A stretch of 64,000 nt of DNA from a virus, in the IMG/VR virus record IMGVR_UViG_3300030419_002087, positions 32,001 to 96,000 of that record. The stretch is one strand, 5' to 3'. The position numbers and the translations under genes were made by a program. The notes below the pieces were generated by a model. That model did not search any database and had not been told where the DNA came from. It saw nothing but the letters and a program-made list of their open reading frames with translations. Of the stretch, positions 30,901-60,147 are shown piece by piece; the stretch's first letter is position 1, and every line of letters starts with the position of its first letter.

Positions 30901-33900
30901 TAAAGGATTATAGTACAGGTGATAGTGACTCTCCATTTGAATATGATTATCGTGATTTTTCAAGTACTGGAGCAAGTGCTGCGAATATATTAGTACCTAA
31001 TGAGGCTTTAATTTTAGGTTATTCTTATTATCTGGGTAGAATTGATAAGATTCTTTTAAGTAGAGATGGATTCTTTGAAATTAAAAAAGGAGCTCCTTCT
31101 GAAAATCCTATAGCTCCAGATACTCCTACTGGAGGATTCTTAGTATCAACTGTATTCAATGCTCCTTACATTAGAAACGCTACATACGAATCTAATAGTA
31201 TTCTTTCTTCTCATAAGAGATATACGATGTTTGACATCGGTAGACTTGAGAATAGGGTTAAGAATATAGAGTTCTATACACAATTATCTTTACTTGAAAC
31301 TGAAACATCAAATTTAAACATAAGGGATGCTGGTACTGGTCTTGATAGATTTAAGTCTGGATTCTTTGTAGATAATTTTAGAGGACATGGTTCTCATTCT
31401 ATCTCACATCCATTATTCAAGGCATCTGTTGATAAGGCCAAAGGTGAATGCCGTCCTTCTCATTACACTACATCATATGATCTTTTAATTGGATCAGAAC
31501 AAGTTGTTGGAATTGGTACAACTGCCGATCCTAATGCTGATTTAACTCAGGTTTCTGATTTACAGTCCAATTCACTACAGAGAACAGGTGATGTTGTTAC
31601 TTTAAAATATACTGAATCTAAATTTATTGAACAGAAGTTTGCTACTACTGTTGAGAATGTAAACCCATTTGCGGTTATTAACTGGGTTGGTGTTATTACT
31701 TTAAGTCCAGCATCAGATACTTGGTTAGATGAAAAACATTTAGATGTTAATAATATCATCATGGAAGGTGAATACCAATCCTTGATGGCTGAATTAAATA
31801 TTGATCCTAATACTGGATTCTCTCCAATTGATTGGAATGCTTGGGAAGAAGATTGGAGTTCTGTAGATGTTTCTGAGAGAGAATTAGGCCAAAAAATAAC
31901 TGAAACTGATAGAAAAGTAGGTAACTGGAGTAGAGGATTTACTGAAGGTGGAGAACTTTTACCACCTATACATGGCGGACATATATCCAGAACTAGAAAA
32001 ATTGATATTAAGGAAACTATTGAAACAGAATTTGAAGAAACTACAACTGTTACAACTGGTTTAAGTAGAAGTGGTGTTCAGTTTAATGTTACTGAAAGAT
32101 GGGATACAGAAAGTCTTGGAACTAGATTAGTTAATAAGGAAATAATTCCTTATATGAGATCAAGAAATATAGAATTTACTTCATATAGAATTAAACCAAG
32201 AACTCAATTCTATCCATTCTTAGATGGACAGGATATTGCGAAGTATTGTACTCCAAAACTTGTTGAAATTGAGATGCAGAGTGGTGTCTTCCAAGTTGGT
32301 GAAACTGTTTATGGTACTACAGATGCGTTCTTCCAATTTGGTGTTGATCAAGGCCCTCACATAATTTTCAGAGTTGCTCAAACCAACCATAAATTTGGTG
32401 CCTATAATAATCCAGAAATTACTTATGCTGTAAACCCATATTCTGATACTGTTGGATTAAGTTCTACTTATTCTGCTACAAGTGGTGTTCTTAACGTTGA
32501 TTGTGGTTCATTACAACTTGAAGTACTTGGTGATTTCTATGGTTATATTAGTAAGGGTATGAAACTGGTTGGTCAAACCAGTGGTGCAGAGGCTATTGTT
32601 CAGAAGAATAGATTAATCACTGATGAGAAAGGTAATTTACTAGGAACTATATTTGTTCCTGATAATGATACTTCTATATCAGCTCCACAATTTACTACTG
32701 GAACTAAGACATTTAGATTATCAAGTTCTAAGGTTAATTCTCAAAGTCCAGTTGATAATCCATCAACTGCGGAAACTACTTATGCTGCAGAAGGTACTCT
32801 TGATATATTCCAAGAGGATATTCTGAGTGTTCGTAATGCTGATGTTTCTAGACAAACATTTAGTGATTCTACCGTAAGAACCAATACAACTCAGAAGACA
32901 TTTAAGACACAATCATTTGAGAATAGAACAGTCTTCCAAAACCAGTGGTATGATCCTCTTGCTCAATCGTTTGAGATTACAGAAGATAATGGTGTGTTTA
33001 TAACTTCCTTGGATGTATTTTTCAAATCTAAGGATAGTGCTATTCCAGTTACAGCACAGATTAGAACTATGTTGACTGGTATGCCTACTTCTACCATAGT
33101 TCCATTTGGTGAAGTAATATATGAACCAACTCAGATTAACTTATCAAATAATGGTACTGTTGCTACCAACTTTAAGTTCCCATCTCCAGTTTATCTTGAG
33201 CCGGGAGAATATGCTATAGTACTCTTATCAGCATCTAATGATTATGAATGTTTCATATCTGTTATGGAACAAGAAGATATTACAACGGCTGATCTACCAG
33301 AAAGTGAGAGAATTATTGTTTCTCAACAACCATACATGGGATCTTTATTCAAATCCCAAAATGGTTCTACATGGACTCCAGCACAGTTTGAAGATCTTAA
33401 ATTCAGTCTTTATAAGGCCCAATTTGTTCAAGAGCCAGGTACTCTTAAGTATTATAATCCAGAGTTGGGTGTTGGTAAATTAGGTAGACCAAAATTAAGG
33501 AATAATCCTTTAACATTCTTATCACAAGAAATTAGAGTTGGTCTTGGTAGTACAGTACAAACACAAGACTTTAGTAATGGTTCTAGATTAACTCAAGTAA
33601 GTAATCTCACTGCCGAAGGTAATATTATTAAGTCTTTAGGTAAGATTAAGATTGATACTCTTGCTACAGCAGCTGGTGGTATAACAACTAACTCTGTTGG
33701 AACAGGATTAACTCCATCAGGATCTAATTTAACATATACTGGAATAGCATTAACTACTATAACAGGTGAAGGTTCTGGAGCAGTTGCGAATATACAAGTT
33801 GTTTCTGGTGGTGTTGGTGTAGTAACTGTCACTACTGGTGGTAATGGATATGCTGTTGGAGATGTTCTTGGATGTAATCTTGGTGAAACTGGTAAGAATT

Positions 33901-57480: not shown

Positions 57481-58869
57481 ATGTTCCAATCAGAACAGTT
57501 GCAAGAGAAGTGGGCCCCTCTACTAAATCATGAAGGTCTTGGTGAAATTAAAGACCCTCATCGTAGAGCAGTTACCGCTTGCTTGCTAGAAAACCAAGAA
57601 AGATTCTTAGCTGAAGAGTCTTCATTCTCCAGAGGGCAATCCCTCATGGAACAACCAACAAACGCAGTTGGTTCAAACGGATTTACAGGGGATGCTACAG
57701 CAGCAGGCCCAACAGCAGGTTTTGACCCCGTATTGATCAGTCTAATTAGACGTTCAATGCCTAACTTGCTTGCATATGATCTATGCGGCGTTCAGCCAAT
57801 GAACGGCCCAACAGGTCTTATATTCGCAATGCGTTCTCGCTACGACGGACAGGCAGGAGGAGAAGCTCTATTCGATGAGCCTAACTCAGCCTTCTCTGCT
57901 GAGCGTGAAGGTAACGACGCAACAGCAGGTTGGACATCAACCAACGCTGGTTTCGGTACAACTGGTCAAATCGGTTCTAATCCTTCCGTACTTGGTGCTA
58001 CAGACGCTAACCAAGGTCTATACTCTGTTGGTCAGGGTATGCGTAAGGATGAGGCAGAAGGTCTTGGAGAATCTGGAAATGATTTCCACGAAATGGCCTT
58101 CAGCATCGAGAAAGTAACTGTTACAGCGAAATCTCGTGCGCTAAAAGCTGAGTATTCATTAGAACTTGCTCAAGACCTCAAGGCAATCCACGGATTGAAC
58201 GCTGAGTCTGAGTTAGCAAATATTCTTTCTAGTGAGATCCTCGCTGAAATAAACAGAGAAGTTATCAGAACTATCTACAAAGTTGCTGAGTCAGGTGCTC
58301 AGAACAACGTAGCAACCGCTGGTACTTTCGACTTAGACGTTGACTCCAACGGTAGATGGTCTGTTGAGAAGTTCAAAGGACTTCTATTCCAGATCGAAAG
58401 AGATGCAAACGCAGTTGCACAAAGAACTCGTCGTGGAAAGGGCAACACAATCATCACTTCTGCTGATGTTGCTTCCGCACTAACCATGGCTGGTGTACTT
58501 GACTACACCCCAGCTCTTAATGCTAACCTAAACGTTGATGACACTGGCAACACATTTGCTGGAACAATCAATGGTAAGTATCGTGTATACATCGATCCTT
58601 ATTCTGCAAACGTTGCTGCAAACCATTACTACGTAGTTGGTTACAAGGGTTCTAACCCATATGATGCAGGTTTATTCTACTGCCCATATGTACCGCTCCA
58701 GATGGTACGTGCCGTCAACGACGGAACCTTCCAGCCAAAAATCGGCTTTAAGACTCGTTACGGTATGGTTGCTAACCCATTCGCTGAGGGAACTACTCAG
58801 GGACTTGGCGCTCTTACTCAGAACGCAAACCGCTACTACAGGCGCGTTAAGGTTACAAACCTAATGTAA
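57481..58869 (+). CDS. gp23: major capsid protein gp23
   Basis: LQEKWAPLL, GVQPMNGPTGLIFAMR, KSRALKAEYSLELAQDLKAIHG, FQPKIGFKTRYG. Confidence 0.98.
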   Translation: MFQSEQLQEKWAPLLNHEGLGEIKDPHRRAVTACLLENQERFLAEESSFSRGQSLMEQPTNAVGSNGFTGDATAAGPTAGFDPVLISLIRRSMPNLLAYDLCGVQPMNGPTGLIFAMRSRYDGQAGGEALFDEPNSAFSAEREGNDATAGWTSTNAGFGTTGQIGSNPSVLGATDANQGLYSVGQGMRKDEAEGLGESGNDFHEMAFSIEKVTVTAKSRALKAEYSLELAQDLKAIHGLNAESELANILSSEILAEINREVIRTIYKVAESGAQNNVATAGTFDLDVDSNGRWSVEKFKGLLFQIERDANAVAQRTRRGKGNTIITSADVASALTMAGVLDYTPALNANLNVDDTGNTFAGTINGKYRVYIDPYSANVAANHYYVVGYKGSNPYDAGLFYCPYVPLQMVRAVNDGTFQPKIGFKTRYGMVANPFAEGTTQGLGALTQNANRYYRRVKVTNLM

Positions 58870-58898: not shown

Positions 58899-58926
58899 AA
58901 GACCTCCTTCGGGGGGTCTTTTTTTT
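58899..58926 (+). terminator. intrinsic terminator after gp23
   Basis: AAGACCTCC-TTCG-GGGGGTCTT followed by a T run. Confidence 0.9.
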
Positions 58927-58955
58927 GTCTAAATAGATTAGTTTGTCCAAAAATA

Positions 58956-59753
58956 ATGACTGCACTGATTGACCCAAAAAAGTATAGTGAGACCGTTGAC
59001 CTATTGAGGTCATTTTTTTTGTCTAAAGGTTTCCTAGAGGTTCATACTCAAAACCGTTTAAGTATCCTTGCTGCATGTGAAGATCCAGAAACAGTAGCAA
59101 CATACAACTACGCTGGCAATATATGGCCATTACCACAGACAGGACAGATGTGGTTAGAATATGAATTACTTTCCAACCCCGAAGCAGAGGGGTTTTTCTG
59201 TGTCTCCACTTCATACAGAGCAGAACCAAATCCAGTTCCAGGCCGACATGAGATTATATTTCCCATGTTTGAGTTTGAAATGAAGGGAGGTGTAGAAGAA
59301 CTTAAGAAGATGGAAATTGAATTATGTGAACATCTTGGATTACCATTAGATACTGAAAATATTCAGACCTATGATGATTGGGGTAATCAGTTCAATGCAA
59401 AAGAACTTGACCACGATCATGAAGATAAGATTGGTACTGGTATGATTACTGATTTCCCTGAGTTCACATCACCATTCTGGAATATGGCAAGGAATGATGA
59501 TGGTACTAGTAAAAAGATTGATGTTATCCTTGGTGGTAAAGAAACAATCGGTAGTGCTGAAAGAAGTACAGACAAAAAACAGATGAGAGATACATTCTAT
59601 ACCATCTCGGATGGCCAGTATGCACAACTCATCATTGATTTGTTTGGTAAGGAAAGAGTAGAAAAAGAACTAGAAGAGTTCTTAGAGTTTGATTTCTTCC
59701 CCAGAAGTGGTGGAGGTATTGGTATGCAACGTCTAATGTCAGCCCTTTCATAG
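58956..59753 (+). CDS. class IIb aminoacyl-tRNA synthetase-like protein (Asn/Asp/Lys family), catalytic core only
   Basis: motif 1 LRSFFLSKGFLEVHT, motif 2 YRAE...RH..FPMFEFE, ETIGSAER, motif 3 RSGGGIGMQRL; no N-terminal OB-fold; CTAAATA at 58929. Confidence 0.85.
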   Translation: MTALIDPKKYSETVDLLRSFFLSKGFLEVHTQNRLSILAACEDPETVATYNYAGNIWPLPQTGQMWLEYELLSNPEAEGFFCVSTSYRAEPNPVPGRHEIIFPMFEFEMKGGVEELKKMEIELCEHLGLPLDTENIQTYDDWGNQFNAKELDHDHEDKIGTGMITDFPEFTSPFWNMARNDDGTSKKIDVILGGKETIGSAERSTDKKQMRDTFYTISDGQYAQLIIDLFGKERVEKELEEFLEFDFFPRSGGGIGMQRLMSALS

Positions 59754-59762
59754 GGCTTTCAA

Positions 59763-59847
59763 TGTGAGGTGGCGAAACGGTAAACGCTCTAGTCTGTTTA
59801 ACTAGTGTTCCTGGCGGGACTTATAGGTTCGACTCCTATCCTCACAG
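59763..59847 (+). tRNA. tRNA-Asn(GUU), atypical: long variable arm, U37, no encoded CCA
   Basis: acceptor TGTGAGG/CCTCACA + G73; D stem GCG/CGC with GG in the loop; anticodon stem CTAGT/ACTAG, loop CTGTTTA; variable arm GTTCC-TGGC-GGGAC; T arm ATAGG-TTCGACT-CCTAT. Confidence 0.88.
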
Positions 59848-59879: not shown

Positions 59880-59947
59880 GTCAGAGAAATACTGACTGCG
59901 GTGATCCCCTTTGGTAGTTTCAGGATTAGCGGCGATAGGAAACTACC
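59880..59947 (+). ncRNA. candidate structured small RNA (hairpin plus pseudoknot)
   Basis: TGGTATAAT at 59865-59873; GTCAG/CTGAC hairpin; GGTAGTTTC/GAAACTACC stem whose loop GGATTA can pair with upstream TGATCC. Confidence 0.5.
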
Positions 59948-59979
59948 TACTAAATATAACAGGAGACCTGCTTTCTACC

Positions 59980-60147
59980 ATGCTCTGCAAAGTAAGAAAA
60001 TCACTCAAAGAATATCGTGAGTGGCAATTGAAAATGTACAATCGCTGGGAAGATACTCTGGAAGTAAGACTTGCAGGTATTAAGGCCGCGAGAGAAAAAC
60101 TTGAAGAACAAATGAGTAGAGATACTACTACCGAAGATAATGGCTAA
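59980..60147 (+). CDS. small coiled-coil hypothetical protein
   Basis: CTAAATA (59950) and AGGAG, ATG 59980. Confidence 0.6.
   Translation: MLCKVRKSLKEYREWQLKMYNRWEDTLEVRLAGIKAAREKLEEQMSRDTTTEDNG

Follow-up and report, generated by a model that had tools for sequence, protein, structure and literature searches.

What may a phage gain from a gene for a synthetase catalytic core that has no anticodon-binding domain and is followed directly by a gene for a tRNA of unusual shape? The question is raised by a locus in a T4-like cyanophage, IMG/VR record IMGVR_UViG_3300030419_002087 (118,934 bases), of which a stretch of 64,000 nucleotides (positions 32,001 to 96,000), hereafter the window, was analysed. 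Here an open reading frame (ORF) similar to the catalytic core of asparaginyl-tRNA synthetase (AsnRS) precedes a tRNA gene with anticodon GUU, and a first-pass annotation, made from the sequence alone, had seen in the two a possible private synthetase/tRNA pair. The comparison with their relatives leads to another answer. Enzyme and odd tRNA are a conserved two-gene phage module, and the enzyme family to which the core belongs, as judged from gene fusions, gene neighbourhoods and complementary occurrence, is most likely tied to pyrimidine synthesis before dihydroorotate dehydrogenase (PyrD) and not to translation.

Fold and relatives of the enzyme

From profile and structure comparisons, the ORF is predicted to be a class IIb synthetase catalytic core without an anticodon-binding domain. 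The Pfam profile of the class II D/K/N core (PF00152, tRNA-synt_2) is matched by residues 11-264 with an E-value of 3.7e-15 (profile positions 26-292 of 308), and the AlphaFold model (pLDDT 96.5, built on a 57-sequence alignment) would resemble most closely the catalytic cores of AspRS, AsnRS and LysRS, which are the top Foldseek matches (E about 1e-17 to 1e-14, with ~18% identity). The absence of an OB-fold anticodon-binding domain, already proposed in the first-pass annotation, is confirmed by the terminator stem that ends at 58920, 36 nt before the ORF start, and leaves no room for an N-terminal domain, and by the start of the Pfam match at residue 11; none of the 15 longer family members scanned contains an OB fold either. 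The class II motifs had been listed as complete, which is correct for motifs 2 and 3, with R88, E90, R97, H98, G252-G256 and R259 conserved in at least 97% of 165 sequences and aligned with AsnRS, but not for motif 1, the proline of which is replaced (..EVHTQ.. in the family, ..EVAPP.. in AsnRS, that is Thr-Gln for Pro-Pro), with Q32 conserved in at least 97% of the sequences. In the pocket, the Q..Q..LE and.E.E patterns are common to the family and AsnRS, those of human AspRS being Q..Q..KQ and.D.E; these are positions that set Asp versus Asn specificity. Taken with the motifs, the pocket points to a reaction that depends on ATP and acts on a substrate of the Asn/Asp type.

The assignment does not extend to any curated family, since no NCBIfam score exceeds 24.8 bits and the cut-offs are 264-468, and phrog_29758, of which the window protein is a member (E 3e-172), is functionally unannotated. 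When the family profile was compared with solved structures, AsnRS was best (E 3.4e-15 to 2.4e-12), followed by archaeal and eukaryotic AspRS (~1e-12), archaeal asparagine synthetase A (2.2e-7), and GenX and LysRS (~1e-4). The class IIb domain of AsnRS (PDB 2XTI and 2XGT from Brugia, 8TC7 from human, 1X54 from Pyrococcus horikoshii) thus has the same fold and gives the best profile match, with the arginines of motifs 2 and 3, Q..Q..LE and E.E in common; from AsnRS the phage enzyme is nevertheless set apart by the missing OB fold, the ~18% identity, an NCBIfam AsnRS score of 18 bits against a cut-off of 414, the replaced motif 1 proline and a gene context of pyrimidine genes.

Catalytic-only cores of this class that have other tasks are known. 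EpmA (PoxA/GenX) modifies EF-P, a non-tRNA acceptor, and the archaeal (AS-AR) and bacterial (AsnA) asparagine synthetases work without tRNA as metabolic enzymes. EpmA, a LysRS paralog, also consists of a class IIb core without the anticodon-binding domain, but is a marginal match (E ~1e-4; NCBIfam scores for EpmA/GenX of 19.5 bits against 264 and 12.4 bits against 286.9, both below cut-off), and the phage pocket contains the Arg of the Asp/Asn enzymes and not the LysRS pattern. AS-AR (or AsnRS2; PDB 3P8T, 1NNH) and AsnA are truncated AsnRS-type cores of similar size (294 aa). This architecture (PDB 3P8T, E 2.2e-7), the weak NCBIfam match to the AS-A type (NF005055, AsnA-type, 24.2 bits against a cut-off of 389) and the AsnRS-like pocket would fit a module for Asn supply, in which the enzyme is a tRNA-independent asparagine synthetase (Asp + NH3 + ATP) and the tRNA an additional decoder of AAY codons, both raising the level of Asn-tRNA. 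Such a module is considered rather improbable: the similarity to AS-AR (E 2.2e-7 and 1.3e-5) is weaker than that to AsnRS, the family being nearer to the latter; the partners are here PyrD, PyrE, PyrF and the tRNA; and the properties of the tRNA and of the cellular relatives, described below, bear on it as well.

A tRNA with a Leu-like body and Asn-type marks

The cloverleaf recognized in the first-pass annotation is supported by ARAGORN (Asn GTT), by the Rfam tRNA model (52.3 bits, E 5e-10), which places a 15-nt insert in the variable region, and by covariation among 57 distinct tRNAs, namely that of the window and 56 relatives. All 24 pairs tested are 100% paired in the 57-row alignment, with changes on both sides in 20 of them, and slid controls pair at 40-49%. 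The script with which the sequences were collected admitted only those with all 7 acceptor-stem pairs and 4 or more of the 5 T-stem pairs, so that these helices are partly selected; the variable arm, the D stem and the anticodon stem were not required, and three of the four variable-arm pairs show both-side changes. On this covariation the tRNA is judged to be real and its long arm to be maintained by selection.

U1, A72, G73, U8, G34, U35, U36 and U37 are invariant (57/57), so that the Asn marks noted at the outset (GUU, U1-A72 and G73) are not only present but constant. The anticodon loop is CUGUUUA; in the family, position 33 is mostly U (48 of the 57 tRNAs, with C in the other 9), and position 38 is either A (34) or C (23). 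A length of 14-38 nt is found for the variable region, which has a covarying stem. CCA is encoded after G73 in three copies that are more distant, but not in the window. Bacterial tRNA-Asn has a short variable loop, a 4-bp D stem and a purine at position 37, and A73 is expected for tRNA-Leu and tRNA-Tyr. The 5-bp variable arm, the 3-bp D stem and U37 (the last in 57/57) had been read correctly from the sequence, and with them the phage tRNA departs from the tRNA-Asn rule; of the marks of the long-arm tRNAs (Leu, Ser and Tyr) it has the arm itself and a Leu-type D arm, but neither their anticodons nor A73, GUU and G73 being invariant. The best cellular matches of the family covariance model are ordinary tRNA-Leu (9 of the 10 Saccharibacteria matches fetched and 7/7 further ones), and among phage-database tRNAs that do not belong to the family, a tRNA-Leu(CAA) of a huge phage is nearest, at 77% identity. 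The molecule, as read from its sequence, is therefore best described as a Leu-like body carrying an Asn-type acceptor end and anticodon.

With the tRNA-Asn substrates of tRNA-dependent Asn synthesis, which proceeds through a non-discriminating AspRS and GatCAB, the phage tRNA shares U1-A72, G73 and GUU, but it differs from them in the long variable arm, the 3-bp D stem, the Leu-like D loop and U37. U1-A72 is reported as the bacterial GatCAB determinant, and an extra D-loop nucleotide as an anti-determinant (PMC1635274). An earlier description of such a tRNA type was not found in a literature search in which the coverage of subscription journals was thin.

Conservation of the pair in phages

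The same module, consisting of a 'tRNA ligase' gene and tRNA-Asn, is carried by the cyanophages P-SSM7, P-SSM2 and P-SSM5. Its neighbourhood is not constant, since it follows gp23 in P-SSM7 and in the window and lies elsewhere in P-SSM2 and P-SSM5. Sullivan et al. (2010, PMC3037559) place the gene, as T4-GC194, in a list of sporadic 'host' genes. At least 594 related stretches are present in IMG/VR, the best 80 of which (78-92% identity) were examined for the tRNA. It adjoins the enzyme in all 73 loci in which at least 98 nt are available downstream (71 found by ARAGORN, 2 by a stem search), the remaining seven ending at most 89 nt past the ORF. The spacing between ORF and tRNA is 7-13 nt in 71 loci and ~90 nt in two. 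The 7-13 nt adjacency persists while enzyme identity ranges over 61-92% and the neighbourhoods differ, which is hard to explain other than by selection on the pair.

RNA-library contigs from four runs of three studies cover relatives of both genes and bridge the ORF-tRNA junction in three of the four runs, although DNA carry-over is possible; being Logan contigs, they are blind to ends, CCA addition, strand and level.

Two further observations concern the surroundings of the module. Three ordinary tRNAs (Ile-TAT, Arg-TCT and Leu-TAA) lie between gp23 and the enzyme in P-SSM7 (L001 2220-2443) and in two IMG/VR relatives (L009 and L013), and none of them in the window. On L090, a short marine contig, a PyrD-like fragment (1276-1962), the enzyme (2028-2834) and a 107-nt long-arm tRNA(GUU) (2859-2965) follow each other, the sole locus seen with all three adjacent.

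The conserved module is what would be expected of the private (orthogonal) pair originally proposed, in which the core would charge the long-arm tRNA(GUU) with Asn through the acceptor stem and the variable arm, supplying late translation or evading anticodon nucleases. The adjacency is strict in phages and found in two different genome contexts, U1-A72 and G73 are invariant, the long arm is conserved and covaries, the pocket is AsnRS-like with intact ATP motifs, the predicted promoter is of the late type and lies beside head genes, and the P-SSM7 gene is part of a tRNA cluster. Extra synthetases that come with odd tRNAs are known in bacteria, such as ProRSx with tRNA-ProA in Streptomyces and the allo-tRNAs, in which full synthetases drive mistranslation. 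As in ProRSx/tRNA-ProA, an odd tRNA is here co-encoded with a synthetase-like gene, but the phage enzyme differs in having no anticodon domain and a metabolic context.

The wider enzyme family

Further information came from relatives outside this phage group. The window enzyme is matched by over 8000 protein clusters (90% identity), and a library of representatives at 50% identity contains 659 matching clusters at E <=0.001 and 171 at E <=1e-30, mostly stand-alone proteins of 260-380 aa. A scan with one genome per species returned 406 relatives, the best 80 loci of which were analysed: most come from large contigs of Saccharibacteria and further Patescibacteria, and the others from Saprospiraceae/Chitinophagales, alphaproteobacterial metagenome-assembled genomes (MAGs) and phage-looking marine contigs. 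Homologs that commonly lack the tRNA had been named in advance as the finding that would speak against a private pair, and this is what was observed. By the covariance model, the odd tRNA lies beside the enzyme in 7/80 genome-collection loci and in 0/2 huge-phage loci, leaving 73/80 and both huge-phage loci without it. The adjacency that holds throughout the phage loci (73/73 in IMG/VR, and P-SSM2/5/7) is thus not a property of the family. In a quick tree (SH-aLRT, a Shimodaira-Hasegawa-like approximate likelihood ratio test; midpoint root; hand-chosen rows) the seven tRNA-linked genome-collection loci fall with the cyanophage clade in a group of 27 rows (SH-aLRT 94), which also includes one tRNA-less trio and is neighboured by alphaproteobacterial genes next to pyrF.

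The homologs without an adjacent tRNA are ~60% identical to the window enzyme and share with it the ~95 near-invariant positions of the family, and the family context is one of pyrimidine genes, so that the private pair stands on its conserved module, invariant marks and pocket but not on the properties of the family as a whole. Moreover, C33 in 9/57 tRNAs and a constant U37 are poor for decoding, an enzyme without an anticodon reader leaves the invariant GUU unexplained unless the tRNA decodes, and no basic residues were gained in what is a very acidic protein. An orthogonal translation pair is accordingly regarded as possible but quite unlikely, and as less economical than a role in pyrimidine synthesis.

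The enzyme was detected in 4/101 sampled genomes of the class of Saccharibacteria. Five Saccharibacteria with the enzyme contain GatB (5/5, four above cut-off and one split) and no AsnB (0/5); asnS is above cut-off in 0/5, with a 244-bit AsnRS-like gene in two of them. The absence of AsnB would favour the Asn supply module. With asnS mostly absent and GatB in 5/5, however, a role in making only free Asn is not obviously useful in these organisms, three of the five having no AsnRS-like gene to use it. Nor did the DNA preceding the enzyme gene in the two huge phages contain an Asn-rich leader peptide. The fusions and clusters of the family are with PyrD, PyrE and PyrF and never with Asn genes, its complementarity with PyrB, PyrC and CarB (see below) would call for a further enzyme from Asn to dihydroorotate, and an ordinary decoder would not be expected to have U37 and C33.

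The Saccharibacteria neighbourhoods themselves are uninformative (ABC transporter, GGDEF, NUDIX, Dus, DnaX and ClpP). Dus adjoins the enzyme in seven Saccharibacteria/Patescibacteria loci (L132, L134, L138, L149, L152, L161 and L166), a protein with a YbaK-type aminoacyl-tRNA editing domain in three (L133, L148 and L157), and a tRNA-Lys lies within ~2 kb in 13, which could reflect synteny or a link with tRNA. An asparaginase-domain gene is found directly 3' of the enzyme in L141 (3816-4313), and RimK-like ATP-grasp genes lie near it in a huge phage (L004 4937-6496) and in a Saccharibacteria locus (L121 6285-6695).

The link with pyrimidine synthesis

Two members of the family are fusions with enzymes of pyrimidine synthesis: P0123 joins a DHO_dh domain to a core 59% identical to the window protein, and P0154 joins the core to orotidine monophosphate (OMP) decarboxylase; the other 13 longer family proteins contain no extra Pfam domain. 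Among 137 immediate neighbour proteins, seven are PyrD (4), PyrF (2) or PyrE-PyrF (1). By local tblastn, pyrF-pyrE / pyrD-enzyme clusters were found in seven Bacteroidota loci (L097, L104, L111, L114, L115, L128 and L145), and pyrE lies ~1 kb or less from the enzyme in the phage loci L031, L043, L059 and L069.

The occurrence of the enzyme is complementary to that of the enzymes that precede PyrD, bearing in mind that MAG incompleteness limits every statement of absence. Outside the candidate phyla radiation (CPR), 12 enzyme-bearing genomes were available, and PyrB is above cut-off in one of them; the seven Bacteroidota among the 12 have no PyrB match and strong PyrD matches (7/7). When nine enzyme-bearing Bacteroidota were considered, PyrB was found in 0/9, PyrC above cut-off in 0/9 and CarB in 2/9, to be compared with PyrC in 8/8 and CarB in 7/8, plus one split gene, of eight hand-picked PyrB-positive controls. 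In an even sample of the order to which one of these genomes (G138) belongs (81 genomes) the enzyme is present in three, none of which has PyrB (0/3), and PyrB is present in 69 of the 78 genomes without the enzyme (hypergeometric p = 0.0026).

Nine genomes of the order sample (G158, G159, G165, G176, G189, G198, G211, G215 and G224; 2.2-7.6 Mb) have neither PyrB (E 1e-50) nor the enzyme (E 1e-20); they could be incomplete assemblies, or contain a more distant relative or another bypass.

Thus, the enzyme family occurs where CarAB, PyrB and PyrC are missing, and upstream of PyrD in gene context. Its fold is unrelated to that of the three enzymes, and so, presumably, is its chemistry, which would be adenylate-forming. 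In phages the same association is represented by pyrE, which is encoded by the genome of the window, by P-SSM7 and by P-SSM2. PyrE relatives (E <=1e-10) were found in 14 of 50,697 phage records, namely P-SSM2/5/7 (6), marine virus fragments (6) and unrelated phages (2), so that the named isolates of the phage collection with pyrE homologs are P-SSM2/5/7 only, the same isolates that carry the enzyme. Among five longer IMG/VR records with the module, pyrE is present in two, one 100% complete and one a 25% fragment. An earlier account of the function of the enzyme, or of a pyrimidine route free of aspartate transcarbamoylase, was not found in the literature, searched at the level of abstracts and with subscription journals thinly covered.

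Long-arm tRNA-Asx genes in cells

Scans of Bacteroidota with the covariance model brought to light tRNA-like genes that are 115-140 nt long, carry U1-A72 and G73, and have 40-66 nt in the variable arm. The anticodon loop is YUGUCUC (GUC, U37) in 7/9, the others being UUGUCGC (G37) in G138 and CCGGUCU in G163. ARAGORN calls neither of the two scanned (L179 and L180), and no conserved partner was found among the neighbours of these genes. In addition, an alphaproteobacterial MAG (G145), in which the enzyme is next to pyrD and pyrE, has on a separate contig an 87-nt tRNA(GUU) with C37, U1-A72, G73 and a 5-bp arm (L191 92-178, - strand). Judging by these shared marks, the phage tRNA is a member of a broader class, apparently undescribed, of long-arm tRNA-Asx genes.

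Enzyme and tRNA are not an obligate pair, given the tRNA-less enzymes and the odd tRNA of four genomes without the enzyme. The tRNA may then be a passenger, that is, the enzyme would act in the pyrimidine pathway and the tRNA be an independent long-arm tRNA-Asx (for example, an anticodon-nuclease decoy or a non-ribosomal aminoacyl donor), kept by a shared promoter and a mobile cassette. It would explain why odd tRNAs (GUC, U37, U1-A72, G73, 40-66-nt arm) are found in four Bacteroidota with no enzyme homolog at E 0.001, why CPR genomes have the enzyme without the odd tRNA, and why the tRNA-linked clade lacks basic residues of its own; it would not explain the 7-13 nt adjacency of nearly all 73 phage loci across 61-92% enzyme identity and differing neighbourhoods, and is held to be unlikely.

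Proposed role and points against it

By taking into account the gene context, the pocket and the phage module together, it is tentatively proposed, as plausible though short of probable, that the enzyme, which would use ATP and be of the Asn/Asp type, takes part in a non-canonical route to dihydroorotate, and that the tRNA is a partner specific to this lineage. The family would mainly serve the de novo synthesis of pyrimidines, at a point before dihydroorotate dehydrogenase, where an adenylate-forming enzyme with an asparagine-type pocket would stand in for the carbamoyl-phosphate route (CarAB, PyrB and PyrC). During infection, the enzyme, the phage PyrE and the host PyrD and PyrF would together provide more pyrimidine nucleotides. 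In one marine phage lineage, the enzyme would have gained the dedicated tRNA, the tight coupling to which, limited to phages, argues for a functional tie. As the enzyme has no anticodon reader, and GUU, G73 and U1-A72 are invariant with a drifting position 33 (C in 9/57), recognition by host enzymes is favoured: host AspRS would read the anticodon and G73, host GatCAB would read U1-A72, and the tRNA would deliver the enzyme's Asp/Asn substrate, or else the enzyme itself would charge the tRNA. In its most specific form, the proposal is that of a one-enzyme bypass of CarAB, PyrB and PyrC, which would make dihydroorotate from an asparagine-type substrate and ATP (e.g. Asn + CO2), the substrate being presented on a non-translating tRNA loaded by host AspRS/GatCAB; put in these terms, it is very doubtful.

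Several observations weigh against a pyrimidine enzyme with a tRNA partner. On the side of the metabolic role, no reaction is known that would yield dihydroorotate from a class II core, and a late-type promoter is unusual for a gene of nucleotide metabolism. In Saccharibacteria, strong PyrD matches are as frequent with the enzyme (9/39) as without it (8/40), and the same is true of OMPdecase (17/39 and 18/40). Both enzyme-bearing huge phages are without pyrD and without a good pyrE, a module-bearing phage record that is 85% complete has no pyrE, and the six marine virus fragments with pyrE have no enzyme on the fragment. On the side of the tRNA, the window protein is strongly acidic (isoelectric point 4.55, net charge -22), which disfavours tight tRNA binding, and a comparison of 90 tRNA-linked with 75 tRNA-less enzymes, which share ~95 positions at >=97% identity, revealed no Lys or Arg confined to the tRNA-linked clade. 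Host AspRS or GatCAB might be unable to act on the tRNA on account of its long arm and Leu-type D loop. Finally, enzyme and odd tRNA are separable in cells, the Bacteroidota long-arm tRNAs being found in 5/9 enzyme-bearing genomes (G138, G143, G147, G171 and G182) and in 4/19 genomes without the enzyme (G156, G163, G216 and G218), the latter with no enzyme homolog at E 0.001.

Layout of the module in the window

The module is self-contained, and is made of a predicted late-type promoter box, the AsnRS-like core, a 9-nt spacer after the stop codon and a class-II-shaped tRNA(GUU) (table 1). Its arrangement agrees with the first-pass annotation, in that the late-like box, a predicted promoter, is downstream of the gp23 terminator hairpin, and the coordinates, ARAGORN and Rfam agree on a cloverleaf of 85 nt that begins 9 bp after the ORF. 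Weak terminator-type Rfam matches coincide with the hairpin at 58899-58920. The sequence ATAAATA is present within 90 nt upstream of the ORF in 33/84 related loci, in 30 of these at -27 to -30, and among the 12 upstream stretches displayed it is replaced by CTAAATA in all five loci with a divergent box. According to ARAGORN, the tRNA is the sole one of the whole window.

Table 1. Coordinates of the module, of its flanking features and of the cellular long-arm tRNA-like genes.
Feature	Position	Strand	Remarks
gp23-like ORF (major head protein)	57481-58869		upstream of module
Intrinsic terminator hairpin and T run	58899-58920	+	9-pair stem with 5 G-C pairs; ends gp23 transcript; upstream module boundary
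T4-late-promoter-like box CTAAATA (predicted)	58929-58935	+	27 nt before ATG
AsnRS-like class IIb catalytic core (predicted)	58956-59753	+	265 aa, ATG start, no anticodon-binding domain
tRNA(GUU), tRNA-Leu-like body	59763-59847	+	85 nt; U1-A72, G73, U37; 3-bp D stem, 5-bp variable stem; no encoded CCA; ARAGORN Asn GTT
Bacteroidota long-arm tRNA-like genes	L179 1501-1639; L180 1501-1615; L184 1522-1654; L185-L190	- (L184)	

A terminator-like hairpin followed by T8 is also found within the 5' end of the ORF (58997-59012, codons about 14-22), and the same stretch is present in the related locus L037; it could be a chance product of the conserved ..LRSFF.. peptide or an internal attenuator. Downstream of the module, the summed depth of RNA-library contigs rises to 580-1148 (run X16) at 59886-59950, the start of a 78-aa ORF (59911-60147), and is there far above that of the module, although contig depth is a poor measure and other organisms may contribute to the rise.

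Implications

Since 2010 the gene has been called a 'tRNA ligase' without analysis (PMC3037559). The tRNA that accompanies it is well supported, by fold and covariation, as a tRNA of class II shape that bears Asn/Asp identity marks and has a pyrimidine at position 37. If the enzyme family does replace CarAB, PyrB and PyrC, it would represent an undescribed entry into pyrimidine synthesis, present in free-living Bacteroidota with genomes of 3-8 Mb and in abundant ocean phages. If the tRNA takes part in the reaction, a step of nucleotide biosynthesis would be tRNA-dependent, and would make use of a class of long-arm tRNA-Asx also found in Bacteroidota and alphaproteobacteria. Whether the tRNA turns out to carry a metabolic substrate, or the enzyme to be a minimal synthetase that is blind to the anticodon and has a tRNA of its own, the result would be new in phage biology and of use in engineering orthogonal pairs.

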